Shown here in pieces: positions 3-60,110 of a DNA stretch of 64,000 nt. The translations under genes were made by a program, and so were the position numbers. A model generated the notes under the pieces. It saw nothing but the letters and a program-made list of their open reading frames with translations. It made no database searches and was not told the origin of the DNA. Each line of letters opens with the position of its first letter. Within the stretch, counting starts at the first letter, position 1. The stretch is from a virus (Duplodnaviria; Caudoviricetes), in the IMG/VR virus record IMGVR_UViG_3300009540_000001, positions 32,001-96,000 of that record; one strand, given 5' to 3'.

Positions 3-2993
3 GAGGCGAAGGTCGGTGACACGTTCCGTCTGCGGGTGCTCGGCATGGGGAACGCGATCACGGCCCGGGTGGTCGGGGTGGAGGACAAAGACCTCTTCCT
101 GAACCCCTCGCGCCCCGAGTTCTTCCAGGACTTCTCGGTGCGCCCGACGCAGTTCTCCGTCGTCCGCCGCCCCTTCAACGACCGCGTCGTAGGCGAACCT
201 GTGCCCGCGCACCCGGGCCTGACGGCGGCGTACAAAGCCGACACCATTACCGGGACGAACGACGTCGACTTCACCTTGAACTTCGAGTTCCTGGGGACGT
301 GGGCGGCGACGACGGCGTACACGATCGGAGACCTGGTCAACGTCGGCGCCTTCACGCTGTACCGCGCGCGTCGCAGCCACTTCTCGGGCGTCGTATTCGA
401 CCCGACGCAGTGGGACGCCGTCGTCGGGATGTACCTCTACGTCATCTCCGACAACCCGGCGAACGACGGGTACTACAAGATCATCGCGGACGCCGCCTTG
501 GGTCGCGTCACCCTCGATCGCCCCTTCGTCTTTGGCGCCGTCACGGGCATCGCGGCCACGACGATGGTCTCGTACTCGGGGCTCTACACGGCGGGGGCGA
601 AACCCGTCATGACGCTCGACCGCACGGTCCTCACGCCCGGCACCGTCCGCGTCACGGCGCGCCGCGCGCACCCGGTCGCCGTTCCTGTCGTTCGGCCTGC
701 GGGGGAGGTCGTCGTCGAAGGCGTCGACTACCGCGTGGACTACGAGAACGGGACGCTCGAGATGCTGACGGGATGGCTCCCGGTGCAGCTCGCGCGCGCG
801 GACTACCAGTGGCAGCGGCTCGTCGATTCGCAGTCGTTCACCCCCGCAGGCGTGTGGACGACGCTCACGCCGTACGCCGTCGGGGACGTCGTGACGGTGA
901 GCGGCGTCGCGTACGTGTGCATCACGGCGGACCCGGGCAGCGTCTCGTTCGACGCGTCCCTCTACGCGAAGTACGCCGCGCCCTTCGCGAAGGACGTCCA
1001 GCGCGTCGAACCCACGCTCGGCATGTGGCTCGTCGACGCACTGGTCGACCACGACGCCCTGTTCGCGAACTTCGGCTTCATGCTCGACTTCAAGAAGCCG
1101 ACGAACGAGCAGTACCGGACGTTCCTGCGCGGCGTCTCGCAGCTGTTCCTCCTGGGCCCCGCGCTCGGGCGGTTCGAGAGCGCGCTGAACTCGATGGCCG
1201 GGTACCCGGTCGTGCAAGAGGACGACGAGCTCTTGCTCGCGTACGACGACGGCGTACACGCCTCGGGCGTCGCGGGCGCCGTGACCGACTCGGTCATCGG
1301 CATCGGCGGCTCCCTCGACGGCGTGGGGTACTTCACCGCGCCCACGGCGGGGTTCCTCTCGACGGACGTCGGGGCGGCTTTGCGCGTGCGCGAGGGCCTG
1401 CTCTTTACGACGTACACCGTCGTCGCGGTCTTGAACTCGACGCTCGCCCGCGTGACGCCCCCGCCGCCGCTCGTGGTGGACCTTCAGTGGCAGTACGAGC
1501 ACGTCGCGATCAACCGGCGCTTCGCGACCGACGAGTACCTCTTCACCGACGCGGACGTCGGGGCGCTGCTCACGCTGCCCTTCGGCACGTTCCCCATCGC
1601 GGCGATCGAGGCGTCGAACGCGGTCACCCTCGACGCACCCTTCGGCTTTCGCGACGCGACGGGCCTCGCGTGGTCCCTCTCGAGGACGGGCCGGCAGACG
1701 GTGACGACGTCGCGCGCGACGTACGAGCTGCCCCTCGGCGTTCTGATGCGCGCGCCGATCATCGACCCGGCCAGCGTGGGGACGCTTCGGCTGAAGGCGT
1801 TCGAACCGTTCTCGGACGCCTTTCAGGTGGTCGACTACGTGGAAGATCCCACGTGGTGGCACAACGTCTCGATCCCCGAGGAGGTGCTCCAGCAGATCGT
1901 GGAGGCGGGCGGCCGAAGGCACGTCACCCCGCGCCTGATCGAGCACGTCTACGGCGCTCTCGACACGGCGGTCTACGGCGACGTGGGCGTCGCGTACGGC
2001 GTCGATGACGAGGGCGAGCCCGGGGTGCAACGCGCGGGGCAGGCGATCTGGTTCGGCGGCGACTCGCTGGTGCTGAACTTCGCGGCGGGCGTGCCGACCG
2101 CGAGGATCAACGACGTCGGACAACACCTGAGCATCCGCTCGCCGGGGTTCGAAGGGTTCTTCCCCGTACGCACCGTGGCGATGGACGGCGTGACGATCCA
2201 GCTCGATCGCTTCCCGCCGCCGGAGTCCGTGGGCCGCGTTCCCCCGCTCTCGGTCGACGTCGAGCTGCCGCCGCTGCTCTATCGGCACACCGTCGCGTTC
2301 GTGATGATGGACCGGTTTCTGAAGTATCACGCCGTGCGCGTGCGCATCGACAAGAGCGCGAAGGTGCCGTCGGCCTTCGTGAGTGATGTGACGCGCCTGC
2401 TCAAAGAAGCAAAGCCGGCACACACCTACATCTACTTCGACAGCTTTACGGAGTTCCGGGACATCGTGCGGCTGGTCGAGACGTTCTCGGTGACGTTTGG
2501 CCCGCTTTACGACGAGCGCATCCGCATGGTGTATGCGTCGCTCGTATACGGCCCGCCGGCGCTGCCGAGGTACAACGACGCGTACCGGTACACGGTCGAC
2601 ACGCAGAGCTTCTCGGGCGTCCCGGGCGTCTACGCGATCGTGCACGCGCTCCCGGTAGGGGACGTCGAGTCGAACCTGGTCAAGTTCCGTTTCGACCCGG
2701 CGATCTTTCTCTCGACCGTCCCGCCGCGCCGCCCCGAAGAGGGGTTGGACTACCTGGTGAACACCGCGACGAACACCGTGGCGATTCTCTCGCCGGACTT
2801 CCCGGTTGGGCCGAACCTCAGCCACTTCTTGTACTGCGTGCGACGCATCCGTCTCGTTGGCGACCCGCTCGACCCGACGGAGACGCATCTGGTCTACGGC
2901 GGCGCCGACCCGACGACGCGCCGCGCCCCGGGACAACTCGCGTACGAGATGGGCTTCCTCGATCGCGCGGTTCAGATTACCCTTGGCCCGTGA
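3..2993 (+). CDS. Baseplate wedge-like structural protein (5'-truncated by window edge)
   Basis: Frame is open from the window start. KPAHT motif near the C-terminus is typical of myophage baseplate wedge proteins. Two W-x4/5-Y-x2-GD-x-V repeats (WAATTAYTIGDLV, WTTLTPYAVGDVV). Lies upstream of tail-fibre-like genes. Confidence 0.6.
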   Translation, partial: EAKVGDTFRLRVLGMGNAITARVVGVEDKDLFLNPSRPEFFQDFSVRPTQFSVVRRPFNDRVVGEPVPAHPGLTAAYKADTITGTNDVDFTLNFEFLGTWAATTAYTIGDLVNVGAFTLYRARRSHFSGVVFDPTQWDAVVGMYLYVISDNPANDGYYKIIADAALGRVTLDRPFVFGAVTGIAATTMVSYSGLYTAGAKPVMTLDRTVLTPGTVRVTARRAHPVAVPVVRPAGEVVVEGVDYRVDYENGTLEMLTGWLPVQLARADYQWQRLVDSQSFTPAGVWTTLTPYAVGDVVTVSGVAYVCITADPGSVSFDASLYAKYAAPFAKDVQRVEPTLGMWLVDALVDHDALFANFGFMLDFKKPTNEQYRTFLRGVSQLFLLGPALGRFESALNSMAGYPVVQEDDELLLAYDDGVHASGVAGAVTDSVIGIGGSLDGVGYFTAPTAGFLSTDVGAALRVREGLLFTTYTVVAVLNSTLARVTPPPPLVVDLQWQYEHVAINRRFATDEYLFTDADVGALLTLPFGTFPIAAIEASNAVTLDAPFGFRDATGLAWSLSRTGRQTVTTSRATYELPLGVLMRAPIIDPASVGTLRLKAFEPFSDAFQVVDYVEDPTWWHNVSIPEEVLQQIVEAGGRRHVTPRLIEHVYGALDTAVYGDVGVAYGVDDEGEPGVQRAGQAIWFGGDSLVLNFAAGVPTARINDVGQHLSIRSPGFEGFFPVRTVAMDGVTIQLDRFPPPESVGRVPPLSVDVELPPLLYRHTVAFVMMDRFLKYHAVRVRIDKSAKVPSAFVSDVTRLLKEAKPAHTYIYFDSFTEFRDIVRLVETFSVTFGPLYDERIRMVYASLVYGPPALPRYNDAYRYTVDTQSFSGVPGVYAIVHALPVGDVESNLVKFRFDPAIFLSTVPPRRPEEGLDYLVNTATNTVAILSPDFPVGPNLSHFLYCVRRIRLVGDPLDPTETHLVYGGADPTTRRAPGQLAYEMGFLDRAVQITLGP

Positions 2994-3496
2994 CAGGCCC
3001 TAAGTCTCCGAATGTCATCCGATCCTCTCTGCGCCTGCGCGGAGACTTGCAGATCGACGTCCGCTACGCCGACGGCTCTCGCCCCAAGCGCACGTACGCG
3101 ATCCGCAACACCATCGTCTATGACGGGCTGAACTCCCCGCTGTACTTGTGGACACAGGACACGGGGAGTCCGACGGACTGGCAGATGACGAAGCTCGTCG
3201 CCGGGACGAACGGGATTCCTCCGACTGTGGGGGATGTTGGTCTCGGCGCTCCTCTGCTGGCCCCGACTGACCAGATGCCCCTCACGGTCGCGAACCGCAG
3301 CGTCGTGCCCGCGCTCGGGGAGCTCGTGCTCACGGCGGGGCTGTCGCTGACTCAGGGGAACGTCGTGCTTCCCTTGCAGGAGGTCGGCATCTTCATGGGC
3401 AACGGCCAGCTCTTCGCGCGGCAGATCCATCCGTCGATCGCCAAGAACGGCGCGATCACCGTCACGTACACGTGGCGCATCGCCGTCACCTCCTGA
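2990..3496 (+). CDS. Baseplate/tail-fibre attachment protein
   Basis: C-terminal EVGIF...LFAR...KN...VTYTW.I pattern resembles phage tail-fibre N-terminal/baseplate domains. GTGA overlap with the upstream gene. Confidence 0.55.
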   Translation: MTGPKSPNVIRSSLRLRGDLQIDVRYADGSRPKRTYAIRNTIVYDGLNSPLYLWTQDTGSPTDWQMTKLVAGTNGIPPTVGDVGLGAPLLAPTDQMPLTVANRSVVPALGELVLTAGLSLTQGNVVLPLQEVGIFMGNGQLFARQIHPSIAKNGAITVTYTWRIAVTS

Positions 3497-3546
3497 CGCC
3501 TTCCTCCTCCCTGACGTCCCTTACGCCGTAAAGGTCTCGCACTCAC

Positions 3547-6324
3547 ATGCCGAACGCCGACGAGAACGTCTCCTTCAAGCAGGGCTCGGACACCGGGCAG
3601 AGCGACGCCCCCTCGATCCAGCCGATTCAGGCGGGCGAGAAGGTGTGGATCGACACGGACAACCGCCCGCTCGAGAACCTCCGCCGTCGCACGGAGATCC
3701 TGCGACGCGAGGCGGAGGACCAGCGGTACTTGTCGGACTACGACCGCGCGTTGCTGCTGCGGTCTGATGCGGTGTTCACACTGACGCAACCGGTGTTCGG
3801 ACAGTACGCGCTGACGATGACTGGGGGCACCTTGAACGTCCACCCCGCACTCTCGCCCAGGGATTCCACGGGACCTGGGCGTCCGACGGGCGGACGCATT
3901 TTCGTCACCATTCCGGGGGCGTTTCTCCCCTTTTCCGGGACGCTGCTCGTCAACGACCTGACGCTCACGGCGGATTACACGGTTACGGGCCAACGCGGCT
4001 ACTCGGATACCGACGACTTCGCAGTCGCGGACACCTTCTCGATCGGTGCGAACCGAATCACGGTCGACCTGATTGCTGACCCGACGCTGGTGCAAAACGT
4101 CGTGACCTTCGGGATCACGCAGACGCCAAAGACGAAGATCACGATCCGCCACGGCACGAACGGCGGAGCGACGTCGCTCAACACACTGATTGCCGCAATC
4201 AACGCCGACCTCACGTCTCAGGGCAGCTACGGCGTCGCGAACTACCTGCGCGCGTCAACGACGTCGCCGGGGACGATGGCGCCGACAGACTTTACAAACG
4301 GTGTGCTTCAGGGGTCCTACGACTCCGAGGTGCATACCGTCACGCCGGCCCAAGTCGTTCTGTTCTTCTCAACGCCCGATAACTACCTGCGCGAAGGCGA
4401 AGGCCTCGCCATTGGCTATCCCAAGGGCCTCGTCGAACCGGCGGTGCCCCCGGGCGTGCCGCCGTACGGACGAGGCGGTGGTCGTCGTCAATCCACCACG
4501 CACTACCCGGTAGACCGCATCGGCGGCGCGGTCTCCAACACGACGCCGCTCGTCGGAACGAACCTCTTCAACACGGCGCGCGAGCCGGAGAAGATCCCGT
4601 ACGCCATCCCCCTCGGCATGCTGGTCGGCGGGTGCTTCGTCTTCATCGACGGCACCAAGCTCGCCGTGGGCGGCTCGGTGAGCCTCGGCGGCGCTTCGAC
4701 AGTGCTCGCGTCGCTGGGCAGCACGACGTTCGGGTCGTCGGGCTCGAGCCTCGTCGGGTATGACGGCTCGGGGCTGTGGAACAATGACTCGGGCGCCCCG
4801 ACGTCGATTCCCGCCGGGACGGTGAACGACGCGCTCGACGCGATCGTGGCGGACTTGGCGGCGGAAACGGCGACGGCGAGCGGCGCGCGGCGCGTAGGGA
4901 GCGAGGGCTACGCCAGCACACACAGCGCTGGCAACCTGAAGCTCGACATCCCTGCCGGGTCCGTACGCAAAGCGATCGAGACGCTGTTGAACGCCCCCGC
5001 GTCTGCAACGCAGGCCGGCGGCGTCGCATACCGCGTGAGCGAGCGCGGGCACCAGATGCACGCCTACGGCGCCATCCAGAAAGACTTCGGGGAGGTCTCC
5101 CCGGTCGACATCTCGGCCGGCGGCGCACGCCTCATCGGCGCGCAGCTGGCGGCGCCGCCCTCGCCCGCCTATTCGGCGGGGCTCGACCGCGCAACGGCCA
5201 CCGCGTTCGAGCTGCTCGAGCCGCTGGGCTTCGACTTCGGCGGCAACGACGTCCTGAACATCCCCGAGACCATCGTGGGGGTGGACGCCTTCCCGAACAC
5301 GATGCGGCTGCTGCTCGCGTCGTACACGATCGCGCGCGCCACGGCGCTCGCGGCGGGTCTTCAGACCGCGATGCACAACCTCGACGGCGGAACGATCACC
5401 CGGATGCTGTATGCTCGCATCACGGGCGCCGGGGCGTACGACGGCTTGTACATCTTCGGAGGGTTCGAGACCGGTACCCCGTCCGTGGTGCTCCTGGCTC
5501 TCGATGGGACTCCACCGGACTTCACGGGCATCACGGGCGGCAGCCTTACGATCCTCCAAGGCATCACGCTCGGCTCGGACGAAGTGGGCCACCGGATGAA
5601 GCTGTTTCACTACGGCGACTCGTTGGTCCCGGTGATCGACGTCGCCTTCGCGGCGTCCCCGGCGGGCGGCTCGCTGCTTCTCCGTGTCATCGACGACAAC
5701 ACGTACCCGCTCGCGTCGTGTGAGCTGCGGTCGAACCTCGCCATCTGGACGAAGGGGGGTGTTGAGCGGCACACGGACAACATCCTCGCGGCGGGTGACA
5801 AGGTGTTGCTCGACGGCGTCGAGACCGCGTCGCCGGTCGACGCGACGGCGAATCACCACCACGGCGTCCCGTACACGCAGTGGAACCCGATCCCGCATGT
5901 GGACGTCGTGTGGGGTACCTCGGGTACCGCCATCGCGACCTTCACGGACTTGACGGACGCCAACGGCGAGACCTTTCAAGGCCCAACCGTTGCAGGCCAG
6001 TCCGTCAAAGCCTACCAGCTCGAGCTCACGATTCGGCACGCATTCACCGACGCGGATGCCGCTGGAACGATCTCTTCCTTCGTGCTCGGAGCTTCTCCGG
6101 GTGTAGTCTACGACGCGACGCCTTCGATCCAAACCACGATTGAGAGCGCGCGGAACTACAAGCCGGTGGCGGGGGCGGCTTACTTCGACAAGACGGTGCA
6201 CGTCATCGTCAACTGCGACGCGACGCGCAACATCTCGATGAAGGTGGCGTTCGACTCGCAAGTGAAACTCACCACGTCACTTGTGACTGCTCGCATCGTG
6301 GCCGCGATTACTGCCCACACCTGA
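3547..6324 (+). CDS. Putative tail fibre / receptor-binding structural protein
   Basis: 925 aa, G/T/A-rich. N-terminal NRPLENLRRRTEIL helix is of the kind seen at tail-fibre N-termini. Follows baseplate genes. Confidence 0.5.
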   Translation: MPNADENVSFKQGSDTGQSDAPSIQPIQAGEKVWIDTDNRPLENLRRRTEILRREAEDQRYLSDYDRALLLRSDAVFTLTQPVFGQYALTMTGGTLNVHPALSPRDSTGPGRPTGGRIFVTIPGAFLPFSGTLLVNDLTLTADYTVTGQRGYSDTDDFAVADTFSIGANRITVDLIADPTLVQNVVTFGITQTPKTKITIRHGTNGGATSLNTLIAAINADLTSQGSYGVANYLRASTTSPGTMAPTDFTNGVLQGSYDSEVHTVTPAQVVLFFSTPDNYLREGEGLAIGYPKGLVEPAVPPGVPPYGRGGGRRQSTTHYPVDRIGGAVSNTTPLVGTNLFNTAREPEKIPYAIPLGMLVGGCFVFIDGTKLAVGGSVSLGGASTVLASLGSTTFGSSGSSLVGYDGSGLWNNDSGAPTSIPAGTVNDALDAIVADLAAETATASGARRVGSEGYASTHSAGNLKLDIPAGSVRKAIETLLNAPASATQAGGVAYRVSERGHQMHAYGAIQKDFGEVSPVDISAGGARLIGAQLAAPPSPAYSAGLDRATATAFELLEPLGFDFGGNDVLNIPETIVGVDAFPNTMRLLLASYTIARATALAAGLQTAMHNLDGGTITRMLYARITGAGAYDGLYIFGGFETGTPSVVLLALDGTPPDFTGITGGSLTILQGITLGSDEVGHRMKLFHYGDSLVPVIDVAFAASPAGGSLLLRVIDDNTYPLASCELRSNLAIWTKGGVERHTDNILAAGDKVLLDGVETASPVDATANHHHGVPYTQWNPIPHVDVVWGTSGTAIATFTDLTDANGETFQGPTVAGQSVKAYQLELTIRHAFTDADAAGTISSFVLGASPGVVYDATPSIQTTIESARNYKPVAGAAYFDKTVHVIVNCDATRNISMKVAFDSQVKLTTSLVTARIVAAITAHT

Positions 6325-6344
6325 GTCTCGGACCCTTTAACGGC

Positions 6345-6381
6345 GAAAGGCCCGGCCGCTCCTCGGAGCGCCGGGCCTTTC
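6345..6381. terminator. Bidirectional intrinsic terminator between convergent genes
   Basis: GAAAGGCCCGG-C-CGCTC-CTCG-GAGCG-CCGGGCCTTTC inverted repeat followed by TCTTT; lies between a + tail gene and - nrdJ. Confidence 0.7.
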
Positions 6382-6413
6382 TCTTTACGCCGTACGCGCC
6401 GCTGGCGCGCCGC

Positions 6414-9400
6414 TCACGTCACCGGCAGCTCGCACAAGCCGCCCGAGCAGAACTTGTCCTCGGAGTCGTGGACGTCCTCCTCGAGCACCAGGGGCTTGAC
6501 CGCCGCCTTGGCCGCGAGGTACTCGGCCTCCGAGCACGGGATGTACGGCGCTTGCGGGTACTGATGATCCCACAAGGGCAAGAACGACACGGACTTCCAC
6601 TTGCCCGTGTAGACGTTGAGCACCTTCTCGATGTCGTCGGCCTCGTCGGGCTTGAATGTCAGGGTTGCCGAGACCTGGTTGTCTGACCACCGCGCTTGCA
6701 GCGCCGTGAACAGCGCGCATTGCTCCCACAGGGTCACGTCGCGGGCGACGCGCTTGGCCTTCTCTTCCTTGCAGGGGAAGTAGGCGACGACGGTGCGGGG
6801 CGTCGTGAGGTCGGGCTCGACGCGGTAGCCCGCGTCCGCGATGGCGCGCGCCAGGGGCGACGCCGCTTCGATGCGGATCGTGCGCATGTAGAAGCGCGAG
6901 ATGGGCATCTTCATGCCGCCCTCGATGCCGAGCAGCAGGGGGATGGTGTTGTGGCTCTTCACGGCACCCGCGTAGAACCAGTGCGTATTTTCGACCTCGA
7001 CGTCGTAGGTGTCCATCTCGCCGAGGGCCTCGATCTTCTTCACCTTGCCGACGATGAGACTCTTGACATCCTCTTTGTCCCAGTTCCACCCCGTGAAACG
7101 GGGGTCGTTCTCGAGGCGCGTGAGCTTCGTGCTGTGCTGACGCAGTCGCGCGAAAGCGCTCTGGTCTACTTTTGTGCCAAGCGTCAAGTGATACATCTCG
7201 CGCTCGCCTTGAAACGATGCGCCGAGCATCTGGAGGGAACGCCCCAGGCCCAAGCCCACAGTCCAACCTACATGTTGAACGTGGGACGCGAATGCGCGGT
7301 CGGCCGTCGTCCAGATCGCCTTGCCCCCAGAGGCGCTCAGGGACGCGCACCCGTCCGAGTCCAACAGCCCCGCGAGGAACGCGAGAATATCTTCGCGGCT
7401 CGAAGTTCGCACCACCTCGGGGATCACGTCGATCTTGTCCCCGAAGTACTTCCAGACGCCGTTTCGGATCAGCCAGTGCCAGAGCATCTTCGACCCGACT
7501 TCGACCACGTGGTCGGTGCGCTCGGGCGCCGTTCGCTGCCGGCTCTCCGTCTCGACCCCGAACTGCTCGCGCAAGACCCTTGCTACTTTGTCGAGATTCA
7601 CCGTACTAGCGTCGGAGAAGCGCAGGCGGAACTGCGCGGGGGACTGCGCACCGTCGCCCCAGAGGTATCCGAGGAGCCACGCGATATCTGGATTCATCTC
7701 GGAGGGTTGCGCGATCCTCGCCGCGTCGTTCCGCATCTTGATCGCAACGGAGTTTACGCGGTGCAGAGCCGCGTGCGTCTCCTTTTGGTACGTACCCAGT
7801 GCGACTTCGAGGATGTCGCCTTCTTGGAGTTCGTCCGTGCGGCGCCACTCGTTCACCACCGGGTAACGGTCTTTCCGCGCCCGGTCCTCACGGCTCGTGA
7901 CGAACCACTGGTGGTTCGGCGTCGATTCGATTTCGAGGCCGTAGCTCAGCGTTACGCGCAGGACCTGGGCTTTACCGTTCACGTACGTCTTCGCGAGCCG
8001 CGACTTCTGGCCTGCGCCCTGCACCGCGTTCGCACCGGTCTTGATCTCGGCCCACTGCATGTCTTCGGGGTGATCGCGGAGCATTTCTTCGAGGGTCAAG
8101 ATTCCCTGGTCAGTGGTCGTGAGCGCGTACCACGGGCGGCAGCCGCCCGGCTTCACGCTCGTCACCTTGATCGACCGCCCGACTCCCATCCACCCCGAGT
8201 AGTCTTCGTCGAGTTCTTTGATGTACGCGTAGCTCTCGCCCCACCAGCGCGTGCACTGACGCAGGCCCAGGTTCTCGTACATCTCCCAGATGCCCGCCAT
8301 GCTGAGCCCGATGCGCCGGTTGCGGGCGATCACCGCGTTCGTGGTCGGGTTGTGCGTGGGGATGCACGTCACGACCTTGGCGAAGAGATAGGCGTACTTC
8401 AGCGTCAGCTTGTACTCGTCGAGCGACTTGTGCCGAGTCGGGAAGGTCTCGACGAGGTTGCACAACTCAGCATCCCAGAGGGTCTGCTCCGAGCACGGAT
8501 TGGTCCCGATCGCCTTCGCATCCGACGTGTTCTTCGCGTCCGACAGGCGCCCGTAGTTCCGCATGACCTCCGGCCACGCGTACCCCGGCTCGCCGTTCGA
8601 AACCGTCTGCTTGGCGAGCTCGGTGTAGTCCTGGTCGATCCCGCACATCACCGTGTTGTTCGAGGCCCAGCGGTACTTGCGCAGCGGGTGCGCCTGCACG
8701 CGGTTCTCGAGCTGCTGCCACGCGGGCAGCGTCTTCAAGAGCGCCTTCTGTGCCTTCACGTACCCGCGAATGTCTCGCTCGACGGGTAGCACTTCCGGGT
8801 CCAGGGCCGAGCGACCCTGGATCGACGCCCGCGCCTCGGTGATCTGCTTCTCGAGCGTGGCCCACTCCTCGTTGCCGCGCGCGATGGCGCGCTGCTCGGT
8901 GTCCAGCGCGATCAAGGCGCTCGGATCCTTCAGCGCCAAGAAGGCCTCGTCGTCGGGGCTCCCCAGCGCGATCTCTGCTGAGCGCCGCACGTTGCCCGCG
9001 ACGACACAGCGCCCGATCCTGTTCTGGATGTCGACGATCACCGTCGAGGTGATGACCTTGCCCTGAACATCCGCCAAGATGAGCTCTACGCCGTAAAGCA
9101 GCTCCTTGAGCGGGCCCTCACCGCTCGCGGTCCCGCCGAACGTGTGGATGGGCGCGCCCTCGGGGCGGATCTGGGAGAAGTCCCAGGAGGGGATAGACCC
9201 TTTGCCCACGAAGGCGTTGAGCAACCTCTCGAGAGCCCCGCACCACCCCTCCCGCGAGTCGGGGATGACGTGCGCCACGTCTTCGTAGACCGGGGTCTGA
9301 ATCCGAATCTTGCCCGCGCCCTGGGTGTCGAAGCCCATGCCGACGCCCAACATGCTGTAGTCCATGAGCATGACGAAGGGCGCGGCGAACTCGAGGTCGA

Positions 9401-9875: not shown

Positions 9876-9885
9876 TCACTCCTGG

Positions 9886-11374: not shown

Positions 11375-11377
11375 ACG

Positions 11378-12744: not shown

Positions 12745-12774
12745 CGCCTCGAGACGTCGTATGCTTCTCGTACG

Positions 12775-48049: not shown

Positions 48050-48073
48050 CCCGAGCAGCCGCCGCCCACGGCC

Positions 48074-48445: not shown

Positions 48446-48454
48446 GCTTCCTTC

Positions 48455-49159: not shown

Positions 49160-49182
49160 CCCACCTACCTTTAGGCCGACGC

Positions 49183-51704: not shown

Positions 51705-51937
51705 ACATCCCCTCCTACTCGATCTCCAACAACCTCCGCACCGCCCTGGTCGTGCAAGGTCGCGCGAAGCTCGCGCACCAGGTCTTGTACCTTCAGGGCG
51801 AGTTCCCGCCCGCAGACACCTCGGTGAACGCGGCGGGTCGTGCCTTGTGCATGAAGCTGGCGGTCGACCTCGTGAACCACATCCAGGTGATGGATGGGGT
51901 CGCGGCGTACAAGAGCCTGAAGCGGGAAGGGACCTGA
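51701..51937 (+). CDS. Small hypothetical protein
   Basis: 78 aa, ATGA-coupled; contains AKLAH and MKLAV. Confidence 0.55.
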   Translation: MNIPSYSISNNLRTALVVQGRAKLAHQVLYLQGEFPPADTSVNAAGRALCMKLAVDLVNHIQVMDGVAAYKSLKREGT

Positions 51938-51938
51938 G

Positions 51939-52793: not shown

Positions 52794-52826
52794 AGACCCG
52801 CTCACGACTCATAGGTAAGGTTCTAC

Positions 52827-55805
52827 GTGGAGAAGCTCCTCGAACTCGACTCCCACTTCCCCAAGACGGGGGAGCCGACCGTCTCTCTCGTCGCCTGGGG
52901 TGACGGGCGCGGCGGGCTCACGCTCGAGAAGCGTGCGTTCGCGGAGAGCCGCTCTCCGATGTACGACTTCCTGAAGACCGTGCAGCCCGAGGCCGGGTGC
53001 TCGTTCATCCTCGTGAACGCCCTCGGCGCGTACGAGTACTACGACGACAACCGCAACGGCGACGGCTTCCCAGCGCGCCCCTTCAAGGTCGGCGAGCTCG
53101 CGACGTGCGGGCACCCCGAGTGCTCGAAGTCCCTCGACGGGTGGATCTCGGACGAGGAGACGCTCGTGCGTCACTTCAAGACGTTCGAGAAGCACGGGAA
53201 CATCTACCGGAACCACAAGAACTCGGACCCGTCGACGTCGCTCGGCTACATCCAGAAGGCCATCTGGAACGACCGGATGCACCGGGTCGAGCTGCTGCTC
53301 AAAGTCGTGAACGACCGGGCGCCGGACCTCGCGGAGCGTATTGCGTCGCACGACTCGATCCCAGTTTCGATGGGCTGCTTGGGGGTAGGTACCCCCATCA
53401 CGCTGGCTGATGGACGGCGTAAGGTCGTCGAAGATGTTGTCGTGGGCGACCGCGTACGAACACACTTGGGCAACGCGCAACGTGTGTTCGAGTTGCACCG
53501 TCGGACCTACGTCGGCGTGGTGCACACCATCAAGCCCGAGGGCGGGCCTCCGCTCACGGTCACGCACGAGCACCCATTCTTTGTTGCCAAGTTCCACGAC
53601 GTCAAACGGCGCCATGGGAAGAAGGAACGACCGTGGCTGGATGATGCTTGCGTCAACGGCGTATGGAAGTTGGCTAATGAACTCGACGCGGACAGACACC
53701 TACTGCTGCAACCGATCGACCGGACGGTTGAGACACCGGAAGAAATCACGCTGCCTCTCGCGAGGCTCCTCGGCTATTACCTAGCCGAAGGGAGCTTGCT
53801 CCGCGATGAGAACGGCCTGCATCTGGGCATCGACCTCAACTGCCACCAGGACGACGAACTGCTGAAAGAGCTCCCGTCACTGATCGAAGCGTTGCACTTG
53901 CCGGAGCCGTACATCTCCGTGCGTTCGCACAGCGCTTGCGCACGTAGCGTCCGTGTCTACTCGCAACACTTGGCCCTCCTGTGCCGCGACTTGATGGGCG
54001 TCTACTCCAAGAAGAAGTTCCTCGACGCGTCCGTCATGCTGTGGGCACCAGAACTCCAACGTGCGCTCTTCGGCGCCTACGCCAACGGTGACGGCTGCGG
54101 TAACAAGAACGGCAGCCTCCAGATCTCGACGAGCTCGGAAGAGCTGGCGACGCAGCTGCTCTCGTTGCTTCCGCGCTTCGGGGTACTCGCGAGCCATCAA
54201 GTGCTCGAGCACAAGCCCAACAAGCTCGTGAAGATCCCGACGACGGAGCACGTCGTCTACATTGGCAAGCAGTGGGCGCAGGGTCTTCGCGACGTATGCG
54301 CGAAGATCAAGACCTCCGAGGTCAAAGCGAAAAAAGAAGTTCGCAAGATCATCGGGGACTATATTGTCATCCCAATCCGTAACATCGACCGTACGGCCGG
54401 CTCCATGCCGGTCTACAACTTCGAAGTCGAAGAAGACAACAGCTACGTGGCGGGCGGCGTCGCCGTTCACAACTGCCATGTCCGCTGGGACGTCTGCACC
54501 ATCTGCGGCCACCGCGCCCCGACGCGCGCGCAGTACTGCGAGCACGCGCTGCGTTCGCTCCGTCAGGTGCTCCCCGACGGGCGCAAGGTCTCGGTGCTGA
54601 ACCCCTCTCCCAAGTTCTTCGACATCTCCTTCGTCTTCCGCCCGGCGGACCCGACGGGCTGGATGCTGAAGAAGGTGGCGGACGTGTCCCACGGCCGACC
54701 CTCGGCCGAGCTCGGCGAGCGCGTCGCCGCGTATCGCTCCCGGGCCTTGGAACTCCGCACCAACACCCAGAAGGTCGCCTCCGACCTCGCGGGCCCCTAC
54801 GGACGTGTCGCCGCCGACGTCGTCTCCGAATGGCCGGCGCTCGAGGGCCAGGCGCTCGACACGCTCGCGAAGCTCGGCTCGCTCTCCGACACGCTCTCGA
54901 CGCTCACCGCCGTGGGCGTCGTACTGAGCAACGCGGAGGTCACGCAGCTGATGGCGAAGAAGGCGGGGATCCCCTGCCCGCCGTCGGACCTCGACCGCCT
55001 CTCGGCCCTTCAGCCCGCGCTCGAGGAAGTCCTTACCCGCTACCCCTCAGCCGCCGCGAAGCTCGCCGAGCTCGTGGACTTCCGTCTTGACGGCGTAAAG
55101 CCCCAACGTCTCGCCGCCATCACGGACTGGGTCGAGAAGCGCGGCGGCTACGCGGACTACGCCCGCACGGTCGCCTACGCGCCCTCCGACACCTTCCAGC
55201 TGCCCTTCGGACCGGGCGCGTCGTACCGGGCATATCAGCCCGGTCGCACCGAGCTTCTGACGATGACCGACCCGAGCACCGGGCAGCAGTACCAGACGAC
55301 GCGCGGCGCTGCGCAAGACGCAGGGAACGAGAAGAGCCGCAGCCAGCTCGCGGGTACCGCGCTGCTCGGCGCCATGTACGCCGGCGGGCTGCGCGCGGCG
55401 CTCGGGCGTCGCGCGGGCCTGTGGACGATCCCTGTCGGGCTCGCCGCCGGGTGGGCGACGACCAAGGCGATCAAGGACAACTTCCCGGCGTTCCGGCACC
55501 CGACGTACATGACCGACCAGGGGATCCCGGTGTCAGGTGGGACAGAGTTCAACAAGGTCTCTGCGTTCGAGCGCCCCACACCGGCAGACGTCGTGCACAA
55601 GGCGGCACTCGACGAACGCCCCTTGGCGAAAATCGCCTCGCACTCCCCGAACTTCTCGTCGTGGCTCGCTTCGACTTCCCTTTCGGAGAAGGTCGCGGCT
55701 ATCGTTGCGGGTGCCGAGACGGACGCTCACGACGTCGGCGCCCCGCCCGAGCTGGACCTCGCCGTCGTCGTCCACAACGTCTGCCACATCGTGTGGGCCG
55801 ACTAA
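52827..55805 (+). CDS. Prohead (capsid maturation) protease, intein-containing, with K-x-A-rich C-terminal extension
   Basis: YRNH (candidate catalytic His), VSMG (candidate catalytic Ser), CTIC...C-x-H zinc motif, FFDISFVFRPAD resembling the E-x-S-x-V-x-x-PA end of HK97/herpes-type proteases; upstream of the capsid gene. Confidence 0.72.
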   Translation: MEKLLELDSHFPKTGEPTVSLVAWGDGRGGLTLEKRAFAESRSPMYDFLKTVQPEAGCSFILVNALGAYEYYDDNRNGDGFPARPFKVGELATCGHPECSKSLDGWISDEETLVRHFKTFEKHGNIYRNHKNSDPSTSLGYIQKAIWNDRMHRVELLLKVVNDRAPDLAERIASHDSIPVSMGCLGVGTPITLADGRRKVVEDVVVGDRVRTHLGNAQRVFELHRRTYVGVVHTIKPEGGPPLTVTHEHPFFVAKFHDVKRRHGKKERPWLDDACVNGVWKLANELDADRHLLLQPIDRTVETPEEITLPLARLLGYYLAEGSLLRDENGLHLGIDLNCHQDDELLKELPSLIEALHLPEPYISVRSHSACARSVRVYSQHLALLCRDLMGVYSKKKFLDASVMLWAPELQRALFGAYANGDGCGNKNGSLQISTSSEELATQLLSLLPRFGVLASHQVLEHKPNKLVKIPTTEHVVYIGKQWAQGLRDVCAKIKTSEVKAKKEVRKIIGDYIVIPIRNIDRTAGSMPVYNFEVEEDNSYVAGGVAVHNCHVRWDVCTICGHRAPTRAQYCEHALRSLRQVLPDGRKVSVLNPSPKFFDISFVFRPADPTGWMLKKVADVSHGRPSAELGERVAAYRSRALELRTNTQKVASDLAGPYGRVAADVVSEWPALEGQALDTLAKLGSLSDTLSTLTAVGVVLSNAEVTQLMAKKAGIPCPPSDLDRLSALQPALEEVLTRYPSAAAKLAELVDFRLDGVKPQRLAAITDWVEKRGGYADYARTVAYAPSDTFQLPFGPGASYRAYQPGRTELLTMTDPSTGQQYQTTRGAAQDAGNEKSRSQLAGTALLGAMYAGGLRAALGRRAGLWTIPVGLAAGWATTKAIKDNFPAFRHPTYMTDQGIPVSGGTEFNKVSAFERPTPADVVHKAALDERPLAKIASHSPNFSSWLASTSLSEKVAAIVAGAETDAHDVGAPPELDLAVVVHNVCHIVWAD
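53376..54473 (+). mobile_element. Intein with LAGLIDADG endonuclease (366 aa) in the protease
   Basis: Starts CLGVGTPITLADG; block B VTHEH; LLGYYLAEGS and FGAYANGDGC; ends VYNFEV...AVHN followed by Cys. Confidence 0.93.
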
Positions 55806-55823
55806 TCTACTCCCAGGAGTCCC

Positions 55824-56372
55824 ATGAACCTCGACAGCGTCCTGAAGAACCTCGACACGACCCTCGCCCCCGCCGCCGAGAAGACGGCCAGCGAGCGAGC
55901 CCCGACCACCCGCGCGAGCTCGCTCGTCGACGACGCCGTGCGCTCGGTGACGACGCGCTCGAAGACCGCCTCGGCTTCGGCCCCGGTCGAAGGCGCGCTC
56001 GACAAGCTCGCCGCGCACATGGCGAGCCAGTCGGCAGACGGCGCGGCGAAGGTCGCGCACACCATCGGGCAGGCCATGGCGGACGGCTTCGTCTCGCAGA
56101 TGTCGGTCTACGAGAACGCGGCCGAGCAGCTCAACGCGAAGACCGCGTCGGAGATCGACCCCGACCTGCTCAAGATCGCTGCCTTCGCGAAAGAAGACCC
56201 GCGCGGCTTCATGGCGTGGGCCTCGAAGCAAGCGGGCTCGGACGACGCGATCGTCAAGCAGGCCGAGATGGAGGCCGCTGAAGAGCTCGAGGCCGCGACC
56301 TTCAAGGGCGCCGCCGCTCACTGGGACGCCGGGTACGAGGTCGGCGCGCTGATGGGCTCGTCCAGGGAATGA
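55824..56372 (+). CDS. K-x-A-rich scaffold-like head protein
   Basis: 9 of 11 lysines are in K-x-A; helical and acidic; AGGAG SD. Confidence 0.65.
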   Translation: MNLDSVLKNLDTTLAPAAEKTASERAPTTRASSLVDDAVRSVTTRSKTASASAPVEGALDKLAAHMASQSADGAAKVAHTIGQAMADGFVSQMSVYENAAEQLNAKTASEIDPDLLKIAAFAKEDPRGFMAWASKQAGSDDAIVKQAEMEAAEELEAATFKGAAAHWDAGYEVGALMGSSRE

Positions 56373-56557
56373 ACCGGGCGCGCGAGCACAAGCTGATCGA
56401 GTTGCACGCCGCGATGCGCAAGGTCGCGTTCGCGGCGGTCACTCCCGAGGTCGAGAAGACCTTCGGAGAGCTGCGCGAGCAGCTCGGATCGGCGAAGCAC
56501 GCCTTCGAACTCAGCGCCCTCGACCCAACCTTCCTGCGCCACCTGACGACGGAGTAG
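56369..56557 (+). CDS. Small K-x-A protein
   Basis: 62 aa, ATGA-coupled; RKVAF, AKHAF. Confidence 0.5.
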   Translation: MNRAREHKLIELHAAMRKVAFAAVTPEVEKTFGELREQLGSAKHAFELSALDPTFLRHLTTE

Positions 56558-56561
56558 AGCA

Positions 56562-56891
56562 ATGCCCAGCTTGGACGACGCGCTCTTCGACCTCTCCCTG
56601 CGCCCGCAAGGTCGCTCGAAGAGCGCCGAGCTGCGCGACCTCGCTGGCGCGCTCAGCCGCGCGCAGCAAGAGCCCGTGACCTTCGAGGACCTGTACGCCG
56701 TAAAGACGGCCGGCGAGGCACCCGAAGCTCCGAGCGGCGACGACGCCCTTCCCGGCGCTCCGCTACGCAAGCTCGCACACGCCGTACGCGTTGCCGAACA
56801 CACCCTCGAGACTGAACGTCTCGAGAAGGTGGCCACCCTCCGACGCGCCGTTCGCGGCCTTACCCTTCTGAACGAGCGAGTGAGCAAGTGA
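56562..56891 (+). CDS. Small K-x-A protein
   Basis: SKSAE, VKTAG, RKLAH, EKVAT. Confidence 0.58.
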   Translation: MPSLDDALFDLSLRPQGRSKSAELRDLAGALSRAQQEPVTFEDLYAVKTAGEAPEAPSGDDALPGAPLRKLAHAVRVAEHTLETERLEKVATLRRAVRGLTLLNERVSK

Positions 56892-57238
56892 GCAACCCCT
56901 TCTCCAAGATCGCCTCGGCCCTCGAAGCCCTCGCGGACGAGATCGACCACGGTCCGTCCGTGGCGCCCGCGCCGGCGATCGAAGCCCCCAAGGCGTTCGA
57001 CAAGACGGCGGCCCTGAACGTCCTTCAAGACCTCGGGGTCGAAGCAGACTCGCTGCTCGAGCATCCGGCAGCGCTCGCGCTGCTCGAGAAAGTAGCTCGC
57101 TCGCGTGTCGCACCCGAACCGCTCGGTGAGCCGAGCGACTATCGAGGCTCGAGCCCGCCGGCGCCGCGCAACAAGGCGGAAGCCGTCAAGCTCGCCTACG
57201 ACGCGTTCGCAGACGGCATCATGAGCGACGCGGACTGA
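56888..57238 (+). CDS. Small K-x-A scaffold-like protein
   Basis: SKIAS, DKTAA, EKVAR, VKLAY. Confidence 0.58.
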   Translation: MSNPFSKIASALEALADEIDHGPSVAPAPAIEAPKAFDKTAALNVLQDLGVEADSLLEHPAALALLEKVARSRVAPEPLGEPSDYRGSSPPAPRNKAEAVKLAYDAFADGIMSDAD

Positions 57239-57278
57239 CCGCTCGGCCCCCTACACTAACGATCGAGGAAACTGATCC

Positions 57279-57797
57279 ATGCAGCTCAACAGCAAGTACG
57301 ACCTGATCTCCGCGACCCCGATCGTTGGTGGGCACGCCTGCCTGGCGATCTCCGACGTCCTGGCCCAGGAGGCGTTCGCCGCCTTCGAAGCGGGCTCGGG
57401 CGTGGGCACGCCGGATTCCGAAGGCTCGCCGGTTCCTGGCACACTGCTCCCGGGGCAGGTCGTGACCATGAACACGAGCGGCTACTGGGAGCTGGCGACC
57501 TCGCCGACCCTCGGCACCCCCTCGCTCCCGATCCTCATGGGCGTCATGCACGACGGCGACGAGGACTTCGACGGCGCCGCCACCGGCAAGCCCGTCGTCC
57601 TCATCGGACCGTGCGAGATCCTCACCCCGCACTACACGGGCGGCTCGTTTCCGCCCGGTTCGCAGGTGACCGTCTCCGCCGGTCTCTTCGTCCTGAAGTC
57701 CGTCGCCGCGTCGACCGTTCAGGCCGTCGGCCGCGTGGGCAACCGGGGCCTCAACAGCGCGACGGGCGTCCTGCACGTCATGTTCGGCGTCCCCTGA
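57279..57797 (+). CDS. Putative capsid decoration/cement protein
   Basis: 172-aa beta-rich protein immediately upstream of the capsid gene; ends ...QAVGRV...LHV like beta-tulip decoration proteins. Confidence 0.5.
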   Translation: MQLNSKYDLISATPIVGGHACLAISDVLAQEAFAAFEAGSGVGTPDSEGSPVPGTLLPGQVVTMNTSGYWELATSPTLGTPSLPILMGVMHDGDEDFDGAATGKPVVLIGPCEILTPHYTGGSFPPGSQVTVSAGLFVLKSVAASTVQAVGRVGNRGLNSATGVLHVMFGVP

Positions 57798-57849
57798 ACG
57801 CAACCTGAACGACGCGACCCCCTAGAAACGCTCAAGGAGACCCGACAAG

Positions 57850-58770
57850 ATGTCTTACCAGACGGAAACCACGCAGCAGCAAGCGACGCTGCTGAACCAG
57901 CGCTTCATCAGCATGCTCGAGGCAGGGCAGACGAAGCAGGCCGAAGACCAGGGCACGGCGTTCATTCGCTCGATCGTCCGCCAGGAGTGCGCCGCGCGCC
58001 TGGTGATCGTGCCGCAAGGCCTGACGAACGACGAGCTCGATCGCGACGTGAACAGCGATCTGCCCCGCAAGATCGTCGAGAAGGAGCCCGACTCCTCGGC
58101 GACGTACGTGCAGTTCGACGGCACCCCGCGCGCCCGCTGGTTCCGGGGCAAGCGCTACGTGGTCTACTTCGGTAAGACCCAGAGCGACATGTTCGTCAAG
58201 AGCAAGTTCAAGCTCATGACGTACCAGAACGACATCCGCAAGATCCTCGCTGACAACAGCGTGAAGGACCTCGCGGACCAGGAAGACATCCTCTTCCGCC
58301 GCACATGCCTCACGCTCGTGAACCGCAACGCCGCCGTGCAGCGCACCCAGATGCCGGCCTTCACGAACGCCGCGTTCGTCAAGGCGTTCCAGGCGATGGA
58401 CAAGCGCCGCCGCCCCATCGGCAAGATGCTGATGACCAACGCCCTGTACCGCGAGGCGATGAACCTCCCGGCGACCCAGGTCGGCTCGGACATCGCGAAG
58501 CGCCACTACATGGAGGGCGCCGACAAGGAGTCGATGCTCTGGGGCATCCCCGCCATTCAGACGGCGAAGACCGACATCTACAACCCCGAGGAGTGCTGGG
58601 TGTTCTCGCCGCAGAACTTCCTCGGCAACTTCTTCCTCCTGCAAGACGCCACGCTCTTCATCGAGCAGCGCGCCGACATCATCACGTTCTTCTCGTACGC
58701 CGCGCCGGGCATCGGCATCGGCAACAGCGAGTCGATGCAGCAGCTGGTCTTCGGCTCCGTCCCGACGTGA
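57850..58770 (+). CDS. Major capsid protein
   Basis: 306 aa, AAGGAG SD, highly biased codons. Positioned after protease/scaffold/decoration genes and before neck genes. LWGIP.I and GIGIGN near the C-terminus fit an HK97-fold pattern; N-terminal TKQAE. Confidence 0.72.
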   Translation: MSYQTETTQQQATLLNQRFISMLEAGQTKQAEDQGTAFIRSIVRQECAARLVIVPQGLTNDELDRDVNSDLPRKIVEKEPDSSATYVQFDGTPRARWFRGKRYVVYFGKTQSDMFVKSKFKLMTYQNDIRKILADNSVKDLADQEDILFRRTCLTLVNRNAAVQRTQMPAFTNAAFVKAFQAMDKRRRPIGKMLMTNALYREAMNLPATQVGSDIAKRHYMEGADKESMLWGIPAIQTAKTDIYNPEECWVFSPQNFLGNFFLLQDATLFIEQRADIITFFSYAAPGIGIGNSESMQQLVFGSVPT

Positions 58771-58812
58771 TCTGACTGACAGACTTAGTGCCGTAGCGTC
58801 TATGCTAGACGC

Positions 58813-59082
58813 ATGCGCTACGCACTGAGCCCGGCGACCCTCCGGGACTACGACGAGGCTCTCTCCCTGCGTAAACACGCAGCGGAGGGCGCCTCGTCGG
58901 CCGTTGTGAGTCCTACGGCTCCGTCCCCGCCCACTCCCACGACGTACAAGGCGCAGAAGCCCCCTCCGCAGCCCGGGGACTACAAGGCGCCCTTCTTGGA
59001 CAACTCGGGCCTCGCGGCCCAAGCGTCGTCCGCGACGCTCTTCCAGGAGGGCAAGGAGAAGTCCATGCCGGTGACGCGGTGA
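58813..59082 (+). CDS. Small hypothetical protein
   Basis: 89 aa; RKHAA; TATGCT 6 nt before the ATG. Confidence 0.5.
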   Translation: MRYALSPATLRDYDEALSLRKHAAEGASSAVVSPTAPSPPTPTTYKAQKPPPQPGDYKAPFLDNSGLAAQASSATLFQEGKEKSMPVTR

Positions 59083-60110
59083 GCGTGTTTACGCAAGGGA
59101 CCGGCACTGCGTACCCGAGTCAGCGCTCGAGCGCAGCCTCACGCAAAGAGCAGACGGCGCTGGATGCGGGCACCGCGTTCAACACCATCGACACGCTGCG
59201 CGCGATCAACCCGGATGCGGACTCGGGGCCGCCTTACGCGGTAAAGGGGGCGGCCCTGCGCACGAAAGTCGCGGTTAGCCCGACCTTCGTCGAGAGGCGC
59301 GTCGCAGCGGCGCGAGCAACGCCAGCCCGTCTTCAGCAGTTTGCGACGAAGATGCGAGGGCGCGCCGAGAACGCGTACGAAAACTCGCGCAGCGCATTCG
59401 GGGCTGCCAACGATTACATGGTCCAGGGCCGCCATAACCCTGAATCCATCCTTCCCGGGCACCAAGAACAAGAAAACTTCTTCGCAGGCCACGCTTGGCG
59501 TGAACGCGAGCTCGGGCATAAGTTCCAAGCAGCGCACGACACCGCGAACGTCCGGCTAGGCCTGCCGGTGGCACCGTTCGACATTGCCGCGCATAACGCC
59601 GCGAGCGACACCCGAGGCAGGTTGGCGCCCGAATTCCGCACTCTCGTGGGCTCGAAGGTCGCCGGCCACCCCCACGACCGCATCGAAGAGCGCACGCCGC
59701 TGCACAAGGGCAACATCGAACCCTTGCAACGCGCCGTGGACTTCCTCGGTCTTTCCCCTGGCTCCTATCACCTCCCTCTACGCGGTAAAGACGGTCAGGT
59801 CCTCGGCTACGCTCAGTTCAAAGGCGTGCCGAACCGCAAGGGGCCCGTGCTCGCGACGGTGCTCGCGCCGCACATGACGCCGGGCGGCGTCAATCTCGAG
59901 ACGTTCACGAAGAAGGCGGAGCTCGCGACGAGCGGCACCCCGCGACAGTCGGGCCTGTTCGACACCGACGACCGCGCGCCGCTCCCTCCCGAAGCGCTCG
60001 GCTGGAACGGAACGCATCAGACGGTGGGACGGCAGGAGTCCACGGGGTACGCGATGCGCCGCGCCTTCGAAGACGTGAACCACGCGGTGCCCGAAGGGGC
60101 CATGGAATGA
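59079..60110 (+). CDS. Modular K-x-A-delimited hypothetical protein
   Basis: TKVAV, SKVAG and TKKAE delimit distinct segments; coupled at both ends. Confidence 0.55.
   Translation: MSVFTQGTGTAYPSQRSSAASRKEQTALDAGTAFNTIDTLRAINPDADSGPPYAVKGAALRTKVAVSPTFVERRVAAARATPARLQQFATKMRGRAENAYENSRSAFGAANDYMVQGRHNPESILPGHQEQENFFAGHAWRERELGHKFQAAHDTANVRLGLPVAPFDIAAHNAASDTRGRLAPEFRTLVGSKVAGHPHDRIEERTPLHKGNIEPLQRAVDFLGLSPGSYHLPLRGKDGQVLGYAQFKGVPNRKGPVLATVLAPHMTPGGVNLETFTKKAELATSGTPRQSGLFDTDDRAPLPPEALGWNGTHQTVGRQESTGYAMRRAFEDVNHAVPEGAME

Follow-up and report, generated by a model that had tools for sequence, protein, structure and literature searches.

Why would a phage carry the same short DNA word at even intervals along its whole chromosome, mostly inside genes, and which protein would read it? 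The question is raised by a 64,000-nucleotide stretch from a virus of the Caudoviricetes (hereafter, the window), which comprises bases 32,001−96,000 of the complete record IMGVR_UViG_3300009540_000001 (G000; 172,374 bp, 66% GC). The original prediction, made from the letters of the window alone, described a palindrome, TTTAC-N3-GTAAA, recurring about every 2 kb, and regarded it as the binding site of a dimeric, chromosome-organising protein. We find that the array of this word is real and conserved, that it is under selection, and that its spacing is unusually regular. From sequence, structural models and analogy, we give about even weight to the proposal that the word marks loading sites, spread over the whole chromosome, for the ParB clamp of the phage, which has no partner ATPase. 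Throughout, the strict word is TTTACNNNGTA, the relaxed word adds TTTAC-N3-GT[G/T/C], and strict sites are 11 nt and full palindromes 13 bp long.

A selected and evenly spaced DNA word

The strict word matched 35 times in the window, at 32 sites, against 0.07 ± 0.26 expected and a maximum of 1 in dinucleotide shuffles. This agrees with the predicted count of at least 32 and with the estimate that chance would give fewer than one, and every position counted by eye between 1404 and 59789 was recovered. Three full palindromes lie exactly where they had been placed, at 16347, 37698 and 40278, with none in 100 dinucleotide shuffles. Allowing one mismatch gave 62 window matches against 2.0 expected, and the near-matches pointed out earlier (10091, 19577, 36989, 38294, 41881, 51072, 55089 and 62581) are real, all reading CTTTAC-GSC-GT[G/T/C]. 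Over the whole 172-kb phage, TTTACNNNGTA matched 88 times (80 sites), compared with 1 + 1 for the reversed control, and a blind scan of gapped 4+4-mers ranked the word first in G000 and in two relatives. Genome-wide, 123 of the 166 TTTAC pentamers have NNNGT directly after them (GTA 88, GTG 24, GTC 7, GTT 4), and about 115 sites are obtained when counted as a strict arm, a spacer and a short arm. An unrelated genome of similar composition does not share this frequency: phage Mx8 (67.8% GC, 49.5 kb) holds no match to the word.

The excess also holds against a codon-preserving background. Shuffling synonymous codons within each gene, with our own GC3- and codon-based gene calls (also used for the frame tests), gave 4.9 ± 2.1 expected matches (maximum 10, 300 shuffles) versus the 59 found in coding sequence, a 12-fold excess. 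These 59 in-gene matches occupy all three frames and both orientations and encode unrelated peptides, as had been claimed, and they draw on rare codons: 32 of the 253 GTA codons of the genome (12.6%), 5 of the 14 TTA codons and 10 of the 159 TTT codons (6%) lie inside the motif. The remaining 29 of the 88 matches are intergenic or at gene edges, though non-coding DNA makes up only 6.4% of the genome, and the intergenic copies are nearer to the full palindrome (GTAAG, GTAAA). Because all frames are used, rare codons are tolerated and the synonymous-shuffle excess is large, selection acts on the DNA word and not on the peptide, which bears out the original prediction on this point.

The consensus is C-TTTAC-G(G/C)C-GTA-(A/C)-(A/G), and no conserved position was found beyond the word within 50 bp on either side. 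Among 91 TACNNNGTA matches (TAC-N3-GTA cores), TTT/AAA flanks both sides in 8, one side in 72 and neither side in 11, where independence predicts 21, 45 and 24, respectively. The core is symmetric, but full 13-bp palindromes account for only 8 of the 80 sites, and sites with a single arm are over-represented. Rather than a true palindrome, the element joins a strict arm (C-TTTAC) to a short arm (GT-R) across a 3-bp G+C spacer. The ideal form of the site is TTTAC-GSC-GTAAA, but the palindrome that had been proposed does not describe the element overall.

The sites are spread far more evenly than random placement allows. The 80 strict sites of G000 have a mean spacing of 2,153 bp with a coefficient of variation (CV) of 0.65 (random, 0.98 ± 0.10) and a largest gap of 7,416 bp; only one gap is shorter than 500 bp, versus 16 expected. 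With the relaxed set (n = 115), the mean spacing is 1,498 bp, the CV is 0.53 (random, 0.99 ± 0.09) and the largest gap is 3,597 bp, compared with a random mean of 7,983 bp (P < 1/4000). Since the array becomes more regular once the relaxed sites join it, we argue that they are functional members. Randomising positions within coding and intergenic classes left the evenness unexplained, and the strict sites of a distant relative, G001 (n = 28, mean spacing ~6.7 kb), are likewise regular (CV 0.55 vs 0.96 ± 0.16, P = 0.001). The selected quantity looks like coverage, in that no part of the chromosome is far from a site. Orientation shows no pattern along the genome (46 plus, 61 minus; runs tests, P = 0.09 and 0.12), and this near-random arrangement suits a double-strand binder better than a polar signal. 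Orientation is weakly linked to gene strand, with 53 antisense and 33 sense sites in coding sequence (Fisher P = 0.05), an excess that is probably explained by Y-x-V-K being an easy frame. The largest stretch free of strict sites (136.4−143.8 kb of G000, outside the window), with strongly negative GC skew, is bordered by two near-identical divergent host-type promoters (TTGCAA, ~17 nt, TATAAT), which lie within a 631-bp gap at ~137,300−137,870.

Related uncultured phages were reached through an RNA polymerase (RNAP) search and a ParB protein search; a single-protein ParB scan of viral contigs found no relatives. The word is enriched, with the same consensus, in G002 (11 in 46 kb), in L060−L064 (one per 1.5−2.3 kb), in G001 and G003 (29−30 in 188 kb) and in G006 and G010, with 0−2 matches each for the reversed word. 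It is at chance level in the G004/G007/G008 group and in the distant G005 and G009. A switched motif in the G004 group was considered and rejected: a ACCGNCGGT palindrome occurs 12 times against 1.7 expected in the 104-kb G004, a modest excess that its sisters G007 and G008 do not show. The motif-bearing relatives range from 51 to 65% GC, and the GC content of a phage usually tracks that of its host. The persistence of the word across this range therefore makes a single host factor less likely and favours a phage-encoded reader.

In pairwise alignments, the eight fixed bases of the sites were kept more often than background windows: 10/13 vs 34% (P = 0.002), 4/6 vs 14%, 3/6 vs 9.5% and 4/11 vs 9%. 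Four positions, in the DNA polymerase, SNF2 helicase and sigma genes and in a zinc-ribbon open reading frame (ORF), are kept in most or all alignable relatives, and the zinc-ribbon site retains its TTA leucine codon there. Many other sites have been lost or gained, including one gain 21 bp from a lost copy. Individual sites thus turn over while density and spacing persist, and the array shows selection on spacing and not on site sequence alone. The window sites, strict unless described otherwise, are as follows.

1404..1414, plus: site (TTTACGACGTA) in a large CBM-bearing gene
3522..3532, minus: intergenic, 15 nt ahead of the gene start at 3547
6384..6394, plus: between convergent genes
9087..9097, minus: in the class II ribonucleotide reductase gene
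11592..11602, plus: in coding sequence
12929..12939, plus: in coding sequence
14346..14356, plus: in coding sequence; position kept in G002
16347..16359, unstranded: full 13-bp palindrome in the terminase large subunit gene
17566..17576, minus: in coding sequence
20972..20982, plus: in the DNA polymerase A gene; position kept in G002, L060 and L062
21583..21593, plus: in a gene of 1158 amino acids (aa); kept in L060
23343..23353, plus: in the 1158-aa gene; kept in L060
24718..24728, plus: in the 1158-aa gene; not retained in L060
25466..25476, plus: in a PD-(D/E)XK nuclease gene
27284..27294, plus: in the sigma-70-like gene; position kept in L060 and L064
27989..27999, minus: between the convergent sigma and ParB genes
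29456..29466, minus: in the zinc-ribbon ORF upstream of ParB, with a rare TTA codon; kept in L060, L062 and L064, and a copy occupies the corresponding place in G002
30674..30684, plus: in coding sequence; kept in L060
32615..32625, minus: in the SNF2 helicase gene; kept in G002, L060, L062 and L064
33119..33129, plus: in coding sequence; lost in every relative compared
34903..34913, minus: in coding sequence; kept in L060
37698..37710, unstranded: full palindrome in the RNAP beta/beta'-N fusion gene; kept in L060 and L064
40278..40290, unstranded: full palindrome in a small coding sequence
43059..43069, minus: in coding sequence; kept in G002; member of the sole close pair (40 bp apart)
43099..43109, plus: in coding sequence; partner of 43059..43069 in the close pair
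46496..46506, minus: in coding sequence
47561..47571, plus: in coding sequence
48863..48873, minus: in coding sequence
52784..52794, minus: overlaps a stop codon at a gene junction
56694..56704, minus: in coding sequence
59235..59245, minus: in coding sequence
59779..59789, minus: in coding sequence
2445..62591 (span): 13 relaxed sites, TTTAC-N3-GT[G/T/C], 11 nt each, starting at 2445 plus, 7753 plus, 10091 plus, 19577 plus, 35796 plus, 36989 minus, 38294 minus, 41881 minus, 45806 plus, 46779 plus, 51072 minus, 55089 minus and 62581 plus

The ParB-family protein as candidate reader

A ParB protein, named as a possible binder in the original prediction, is indeed encoded in the window, among the following genes.

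28002..29081, minus: orphan ParB-family gene (359 aa), the candidate reader, with a CTPase N-domain (GxRR, ENLQR), a helix-turn-helix (HTH) and a predicted new C-terminal dimer domain
29079..29430, minus: conserved ORF of ~117 aa, of no known family, between the zinc-ribbon ORF and ParB and overlapping both
29343..29534, minus: 63-aa zinc-ribbon ORF upstream of ParB, conserved in relatives and bearing a conserved site
27191..27976, plus: sigma-70-like factor gene, convergent with ParB in all relatives

In Pfam, the ParB protein matched HTH_ParB at 1.6e-5 (above the cut-off) and ParB_N at 1.7e-4 (below the curated cut-off), and among PDB sequences it matched ParB (phmmer, 1e-8), Noc, Spo0J and KorB. 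Residues G125, R127, R128, E160, N161 and R164, which belong to the GxRR and ENLQR motifs, are invariant. The AlphaFold2 model, with a predicted local distance difference test (pLDDT) score of 80, has CTP-analogue-bound ParB, Noc (7nfu) and KorB-KorA-DNA as its best fold matches; Foldseek gave 6e-10 to CTP-gamma-S-bound ParB, and the model superposes on KorB in 8qa9 with a TM-score of 0.73 by target. The modelled DNA-binding domain fits KorB-operator (1r71) and Noc-NBS (6y93) complexes with a root-mean-square deviation of 2.6. By sequence and model, therefore, the protein encoded at 28002−29081 is a member of the ParB-CTPase family, having both the N-terminal ParB/Srx fold motifs and the central HTH. 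The canonical ParB C-terminal domain, PF23552, was not detected in it. Instead, its C-terminal 64 residues (296−359) are predicted to homodimerise, with a score of 0.58 versus 0.00 for the best control; at least 88% of contacts are shared between runs, and the partner pLDDT is at least 75. Among proteins of solved structure, 20 of 30 one-chain pairs and 1 of 23 single chains reached the mark applied, rough counts because the alignment was our own. The N-terminus (residues 1−31, pLDDT < 50) is predicted to be disordered and is Lys-rich, and the first helix spans residues 37−48.

A search of the complete genome with PF13614 and PF01656 turned up no ParA; the controls matched in 14 of 14 genomes. 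A ParB-family gene without ParA fits a Noc- or KorB-like organiser better than a partition centromere. Searches of G000 for LexA-like S24 peptidase, MatP, HU/IHF, RHH, HTH_17, tyrosine integrase and N6/N4 methyltransferase also found none of these families. ParB orthologues, on the other hand, are present in every motif-bearing genome, within a conserved order of SNF2 helicase, nuclease, two small ORFs, ParB and the convergent sigma gene. Their recognition helix reads G-x-[VI]-[ST]-Q throughout the motif-bearing clade, even at 22−24% overall identity (G003, G010), compared with S-W-V-S-Y in the motif-less G004 group and V-A-N in parS-binding ParBs. Sigma aside, sequence comparison leaves ParB as the only phage-encoded, sequence-specific binder that tracks the motif.

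Several observations concern the surroundings of the gene. The two overlapping small ORFs upstream of it (29079−29534, minus) show unusually high nucleotide conservation across relatives, and the ~117-aa ORF runs into the start of ParB in a different frame; possibly, both encode partners of ParB. The site upstream of ParB was considered as an autoregulatory operator on a promoter, and this was rejected when the site proved to lie inside the conserved 63-aa zinc-ribbon ORF. The sigma-70-like and ParB genes are convergent neighbours in every relative examined. A 2025 survey reported bacterial ParB-fold/Sigma70 fusions and many uncharacterised orphan phage ParB-fold proteins (PMC12704722).

By analogy, we infer ParB as the reader, its sliding and the purpose of the resulting coat. 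The C-TTTAC-N3-GT-R element would be a protein-docking site, present in ~115 copies over 172 kb and kept by selection on the DNA. A ParB dimer joined at the C-terminus would recognise it through the HTH domains, as in ParB, Noc and KorB, and would prefer CTTTACGGCGTAC and TTTACGGCGTAAA duplexes over scrambled DNA. The bound dimer would take up CTP, close as a clamp and slide away for ~1 kb, and with a loading site every 1.5−2 kb no part of the phage chromosome would be left uncoated. This coat may organise, compact or mark the phage DNA, and sites over the −35 region of GGTA(T/C)AAG promoters may also tune transcription, like KorB on plasmid RK2.

The nearest known system is indeed KorB and its operator OB, from the IncP plasmid RK2. 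The OB core, TTTAGCGGCTAAA, is 13 bp with outer TTTA...TAAA (PMC11790492), and occurs in 12 copies on the 60-kb RK2, some on promoters and some far away (PMC13768133). KorB slides along DNA as a CTP-dependent clamp and can silence from afar (PMC11790492, PMC13768133). The phage array resembles this system in having a 13-bp element with the same outer bases in many copies on a mobile genome, and some phage sites also overlap promoter-like −35 regions. It differs in that the phage sites are ~3−4 times denser, mostly inside genes and one-armed instead of symmetric; genome searches found no ParA/IncC, and no KorA-like partner was identified; the carrier is a lytic-type phage rather than a plasmid, and its ParB is ~20% identical to KorB. 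The nearest orphan ParB with many dispersed sites is Noc of Bacillus, likewise a ParB paralogue without ParA that spreads in a CTP-dependent manner and matches in fold, with tens of sites scattered over the whole chromosome. The Noc sites, in contrast, are symmetric 14−16-bp palindromes at ~1 per 60 kb, and Noc tethers DNA to the membrane by an N-terminal amphipathic helix, whereas the N-terminus of the phage ParB is predicted to be disordered. Canonical ParABS systems, including those of the phage P1/N15 type, share the protein family and CTP-binding motifs, but have a few clustered parS sites beside parAB and need ParA, while this phage has ~115 dispersed sites, no ParA and no integrase that we could find.

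Several points weigh against ParB as the reader. The geometry with one strict arm is unusual, since the sites of the ParB family are symmetric. GTAAA doubles as a −35-like element of a phage promoter class (see below), so involvement of sigma or RNAP is possible. The co-occurrence of ParB with the motif and the covariation of its recognition helix are confounded by relatedness and come from few lineages; the motif-less G005, for example, shares only ~13 proteins with G000. The reader could also be any of the phage proteins that lack a family assignment, which are the majority. Moreover, an orphan plasmid ParB, HerB, binds host DNA rather than plasmid DNA (PMC13370423).

Alternative readers and functions

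Apart from ParB, the explanation that survives best is that another double-strand DNA binder occupies the sites: an unannotated phage protein, an XRE/Cro repressor or a host factor with a 5-N3-5 box. It would act as a genome-wide silencer or roadblock, like L5 gp71 at stoperators, and we hold it to be unlikely, although a serious competitor. Most phage ORFs have no Pfam match, which leaves room for such a protein. A perfect palindrome also lies at the −35 region of the GGGTATAAG promoter of a 65-aa HTH_3 gene (G000 14649−14846), a classic layout for autoregulation. This XRE/Cro-type protein has no homologue among 5.8 billion proteins and none in G001, while the motif is clade-wide; as a universal reader it was therefore rejected. 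Comparison with known repressor boxes, also suggested at the outset, showed that unrelated proteins use the same 5-N3-5 geometry, namely LexA of Bdellovibrio (TTAC-N3-GTAA; PMC8565304) and MatP at a Photorhabdus matS variant (GTTAC-N3-GTAAC; PMC8669397), and that KorB OB shares the outer bases. Geometry alone thus cannot name the reader. Neither a LexA-like nor a MatP gene was found in the phage, and their sites number from a few to ~20 per Mb-size chromosome; a single host factor is disfavoured by the retention of the motif over phages of 51−66% GC. As for stoperators, mycobacteriophage L5 has ~30 asymmetric 13-bp sites for gp71 over its genome, well beyond promoters. Those sites lie mostly in short intergenic gaps, in one orientation relative to transcription, and are read by a temperate-phage repressor, not a ParB-type protein. 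The sites of our phage, unlike stoperators, have no single orientation relative to transcription (33 sense vs 53 antisense), and two thirds are intragenic.

A polar signal for a DNA-processing machine, such as a Chi-like stop for a PD-(D/E)XK nuclease/helicase set, a priming site or a site-specific nick, seems improbable. Its appeal is that, with evenly spaced sites, any end or fork would soon meet one; Chi-like signals gain from even coverage in the same way, and the 1.5−2 kb spacing resembles the length of Okazaki fragments. The element is asymmetric, and the neighbourhood of the ParB gene encodes two PD-(D/E)XK nucleases, an SNF2 helicase and an RNase T-like exonuclease. Like Chi sites and DNA uptake sequences, the word is short, over-represented, present in all frames and dense, with fairly even coverage. 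Those, in contrast, are polar or single-strand signals of cellular genomes, whereas the phage word shows no polarity along the genome. Its dyad-symmetric TAC-N3-GTA core, and the drift of intergenic copies towards the full palindrome, fit a double-strand dimer. The Chi and primase words known so far have a length of 3−8 nt, not 11−13.

Slightly less probable still is a transcription element, either a −35-like landing site for the phage sigma factor and RNAP or a pause or termination signal. The phage encodes both a sigma-70-like factor and its own RNAP, and has a second repeated box, GGTATAAG, which is promoter-like: its nine copies are always upstream of, and co-oriented with, minus-strand genes.

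GGTATAAG boxes, all minus, outside the window: G000 2266, 12530, 12916, 14859, 15693, 16220, 131367, 136633 and 147873

GTAAA lies 14−16 nt upstream of the GG in four GGTATAAG boxes and one GGTACAAG box (124521); at these five GGTA(T/C)AAG places, the −35 position holds three full or relaxed sites and two bare GTAAA half-sites. The sites at these −35 positions make a regulatory side-role plausible. The excess of matches between and at the edges of genes also speaks for a transcriptional function, as does our own reading that ~13 of 14 sites just past stop codons read TAC-N3-GTAAAG along the upstream gene. Against it, two thirds of the sites lie in genes, in both orientations, and the word lacks the paired −35/−10, fixed spacing and co-orientation of a sigma-70-type promoter: a −10 partner is missing, since no position within 50 bp is conserved, and TATAAG is near only three sites, while the true promoter-like box is always co-oriented with its genes. 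The suggestion that the word organises the chromosome rather than serving as a promoter operator accordingly stands as far as its whole-chromosome spread in both orientations is concerned, unlike the GGTATAAG boxes, and is qualified by the few copies at promoter-like −35 positions. The GGTATAAG box is often followed by NNN-ATG-TAG or placed 5 nt before a start codon (leaderless?), and the box with its upstream GTAAA also occurs in G001.

Another self-mark that works without ParB, in packaging, DNA uptake or the discrimination of phage from host DNA, is very unlikely, because no candidate reader was identified and uptake sequences belong to cells and not to lytic-type phages, even if the density, evenness, use of all frames and turnover resemble the uptake signal sequences of Neisseria and Haemophilus.

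The phage and the possible role of the array

The stretch is present in full in two activated-sludge metagenome runs, which may be the source of the window DNA. A megablast of the RNAP gene against cultured phages gave no match, and no close cultured relative of G000 was found, the best terminase relatives being ~30% identical. A scan of bacterial genomes with the sigma factor returned only remote matches in Hungatella and Draconibacterium. The window encodes a class II ribonucleotide reductase, a terminase, a family A DNA polymerase, a two-chain RNAP (a beta/beta'-N fusion and beta'-C), the sigma-70-like factor, the two PD-(D/E)XK nucleases and the ParB-family protein. The B12-dependent ribonucleotide reductase gene (6414−9875, minus) contains an intein with a LAGLIDADG domain, and a LAGLIDADG match is also present in the RNAP beta/beta' gene of L064.

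Outside the window, G000 carries a one-piece transfer-messenger RNA with the tag ANYNAFAAPLLAAA (117364−117693, minus; locus L068 465−794), called by ARAGORN and matched by Rfam RF00023 at 108.8 bits. ARAGORN also called a 93-nt tRNA-Glu(CTC) with a possible insertion (138552−138644, minus), which has no Rfam match at the gathering threshold. Upstream of the gene starts at 2168, 12446, 14524 and 16136 (minus) is a repeated ~45-nt leader, composed of a short hairpin (caccggcg...cgccgg-like), then ATATAAAAGAACG and then a Shine-Dalgarno sequence.

Should ParB be the reader, no natural ParB-type loading array known to us would be denser or more evenly spaced. Our literature search found no description of a genome-wide, evenly spaced array of ParB-type sites in a phage. 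The array would then also add a phage case to the work on CTP switches (KorB, Noc, HerB). With neither a partition ATPase nor an integrase, the clamp would serve a job other than segregation. A bolder version, which we put forward tentatively and consider rather doubtful, is that CTP-driven ParB clamps made by a lytic-type phage, loading at ~115 evenly spaced in-gene sites, cover the whole of its chromosome as a virus-encoded, sequence-addressed 'chromatin'. If so, this chromatin would separate, compact or shield the phage DNA from the host nucleoid and defences, or give the phage RNAP its territory, and would be both a role new to the ParB fold and a new means by which a phage marks its own DNA.

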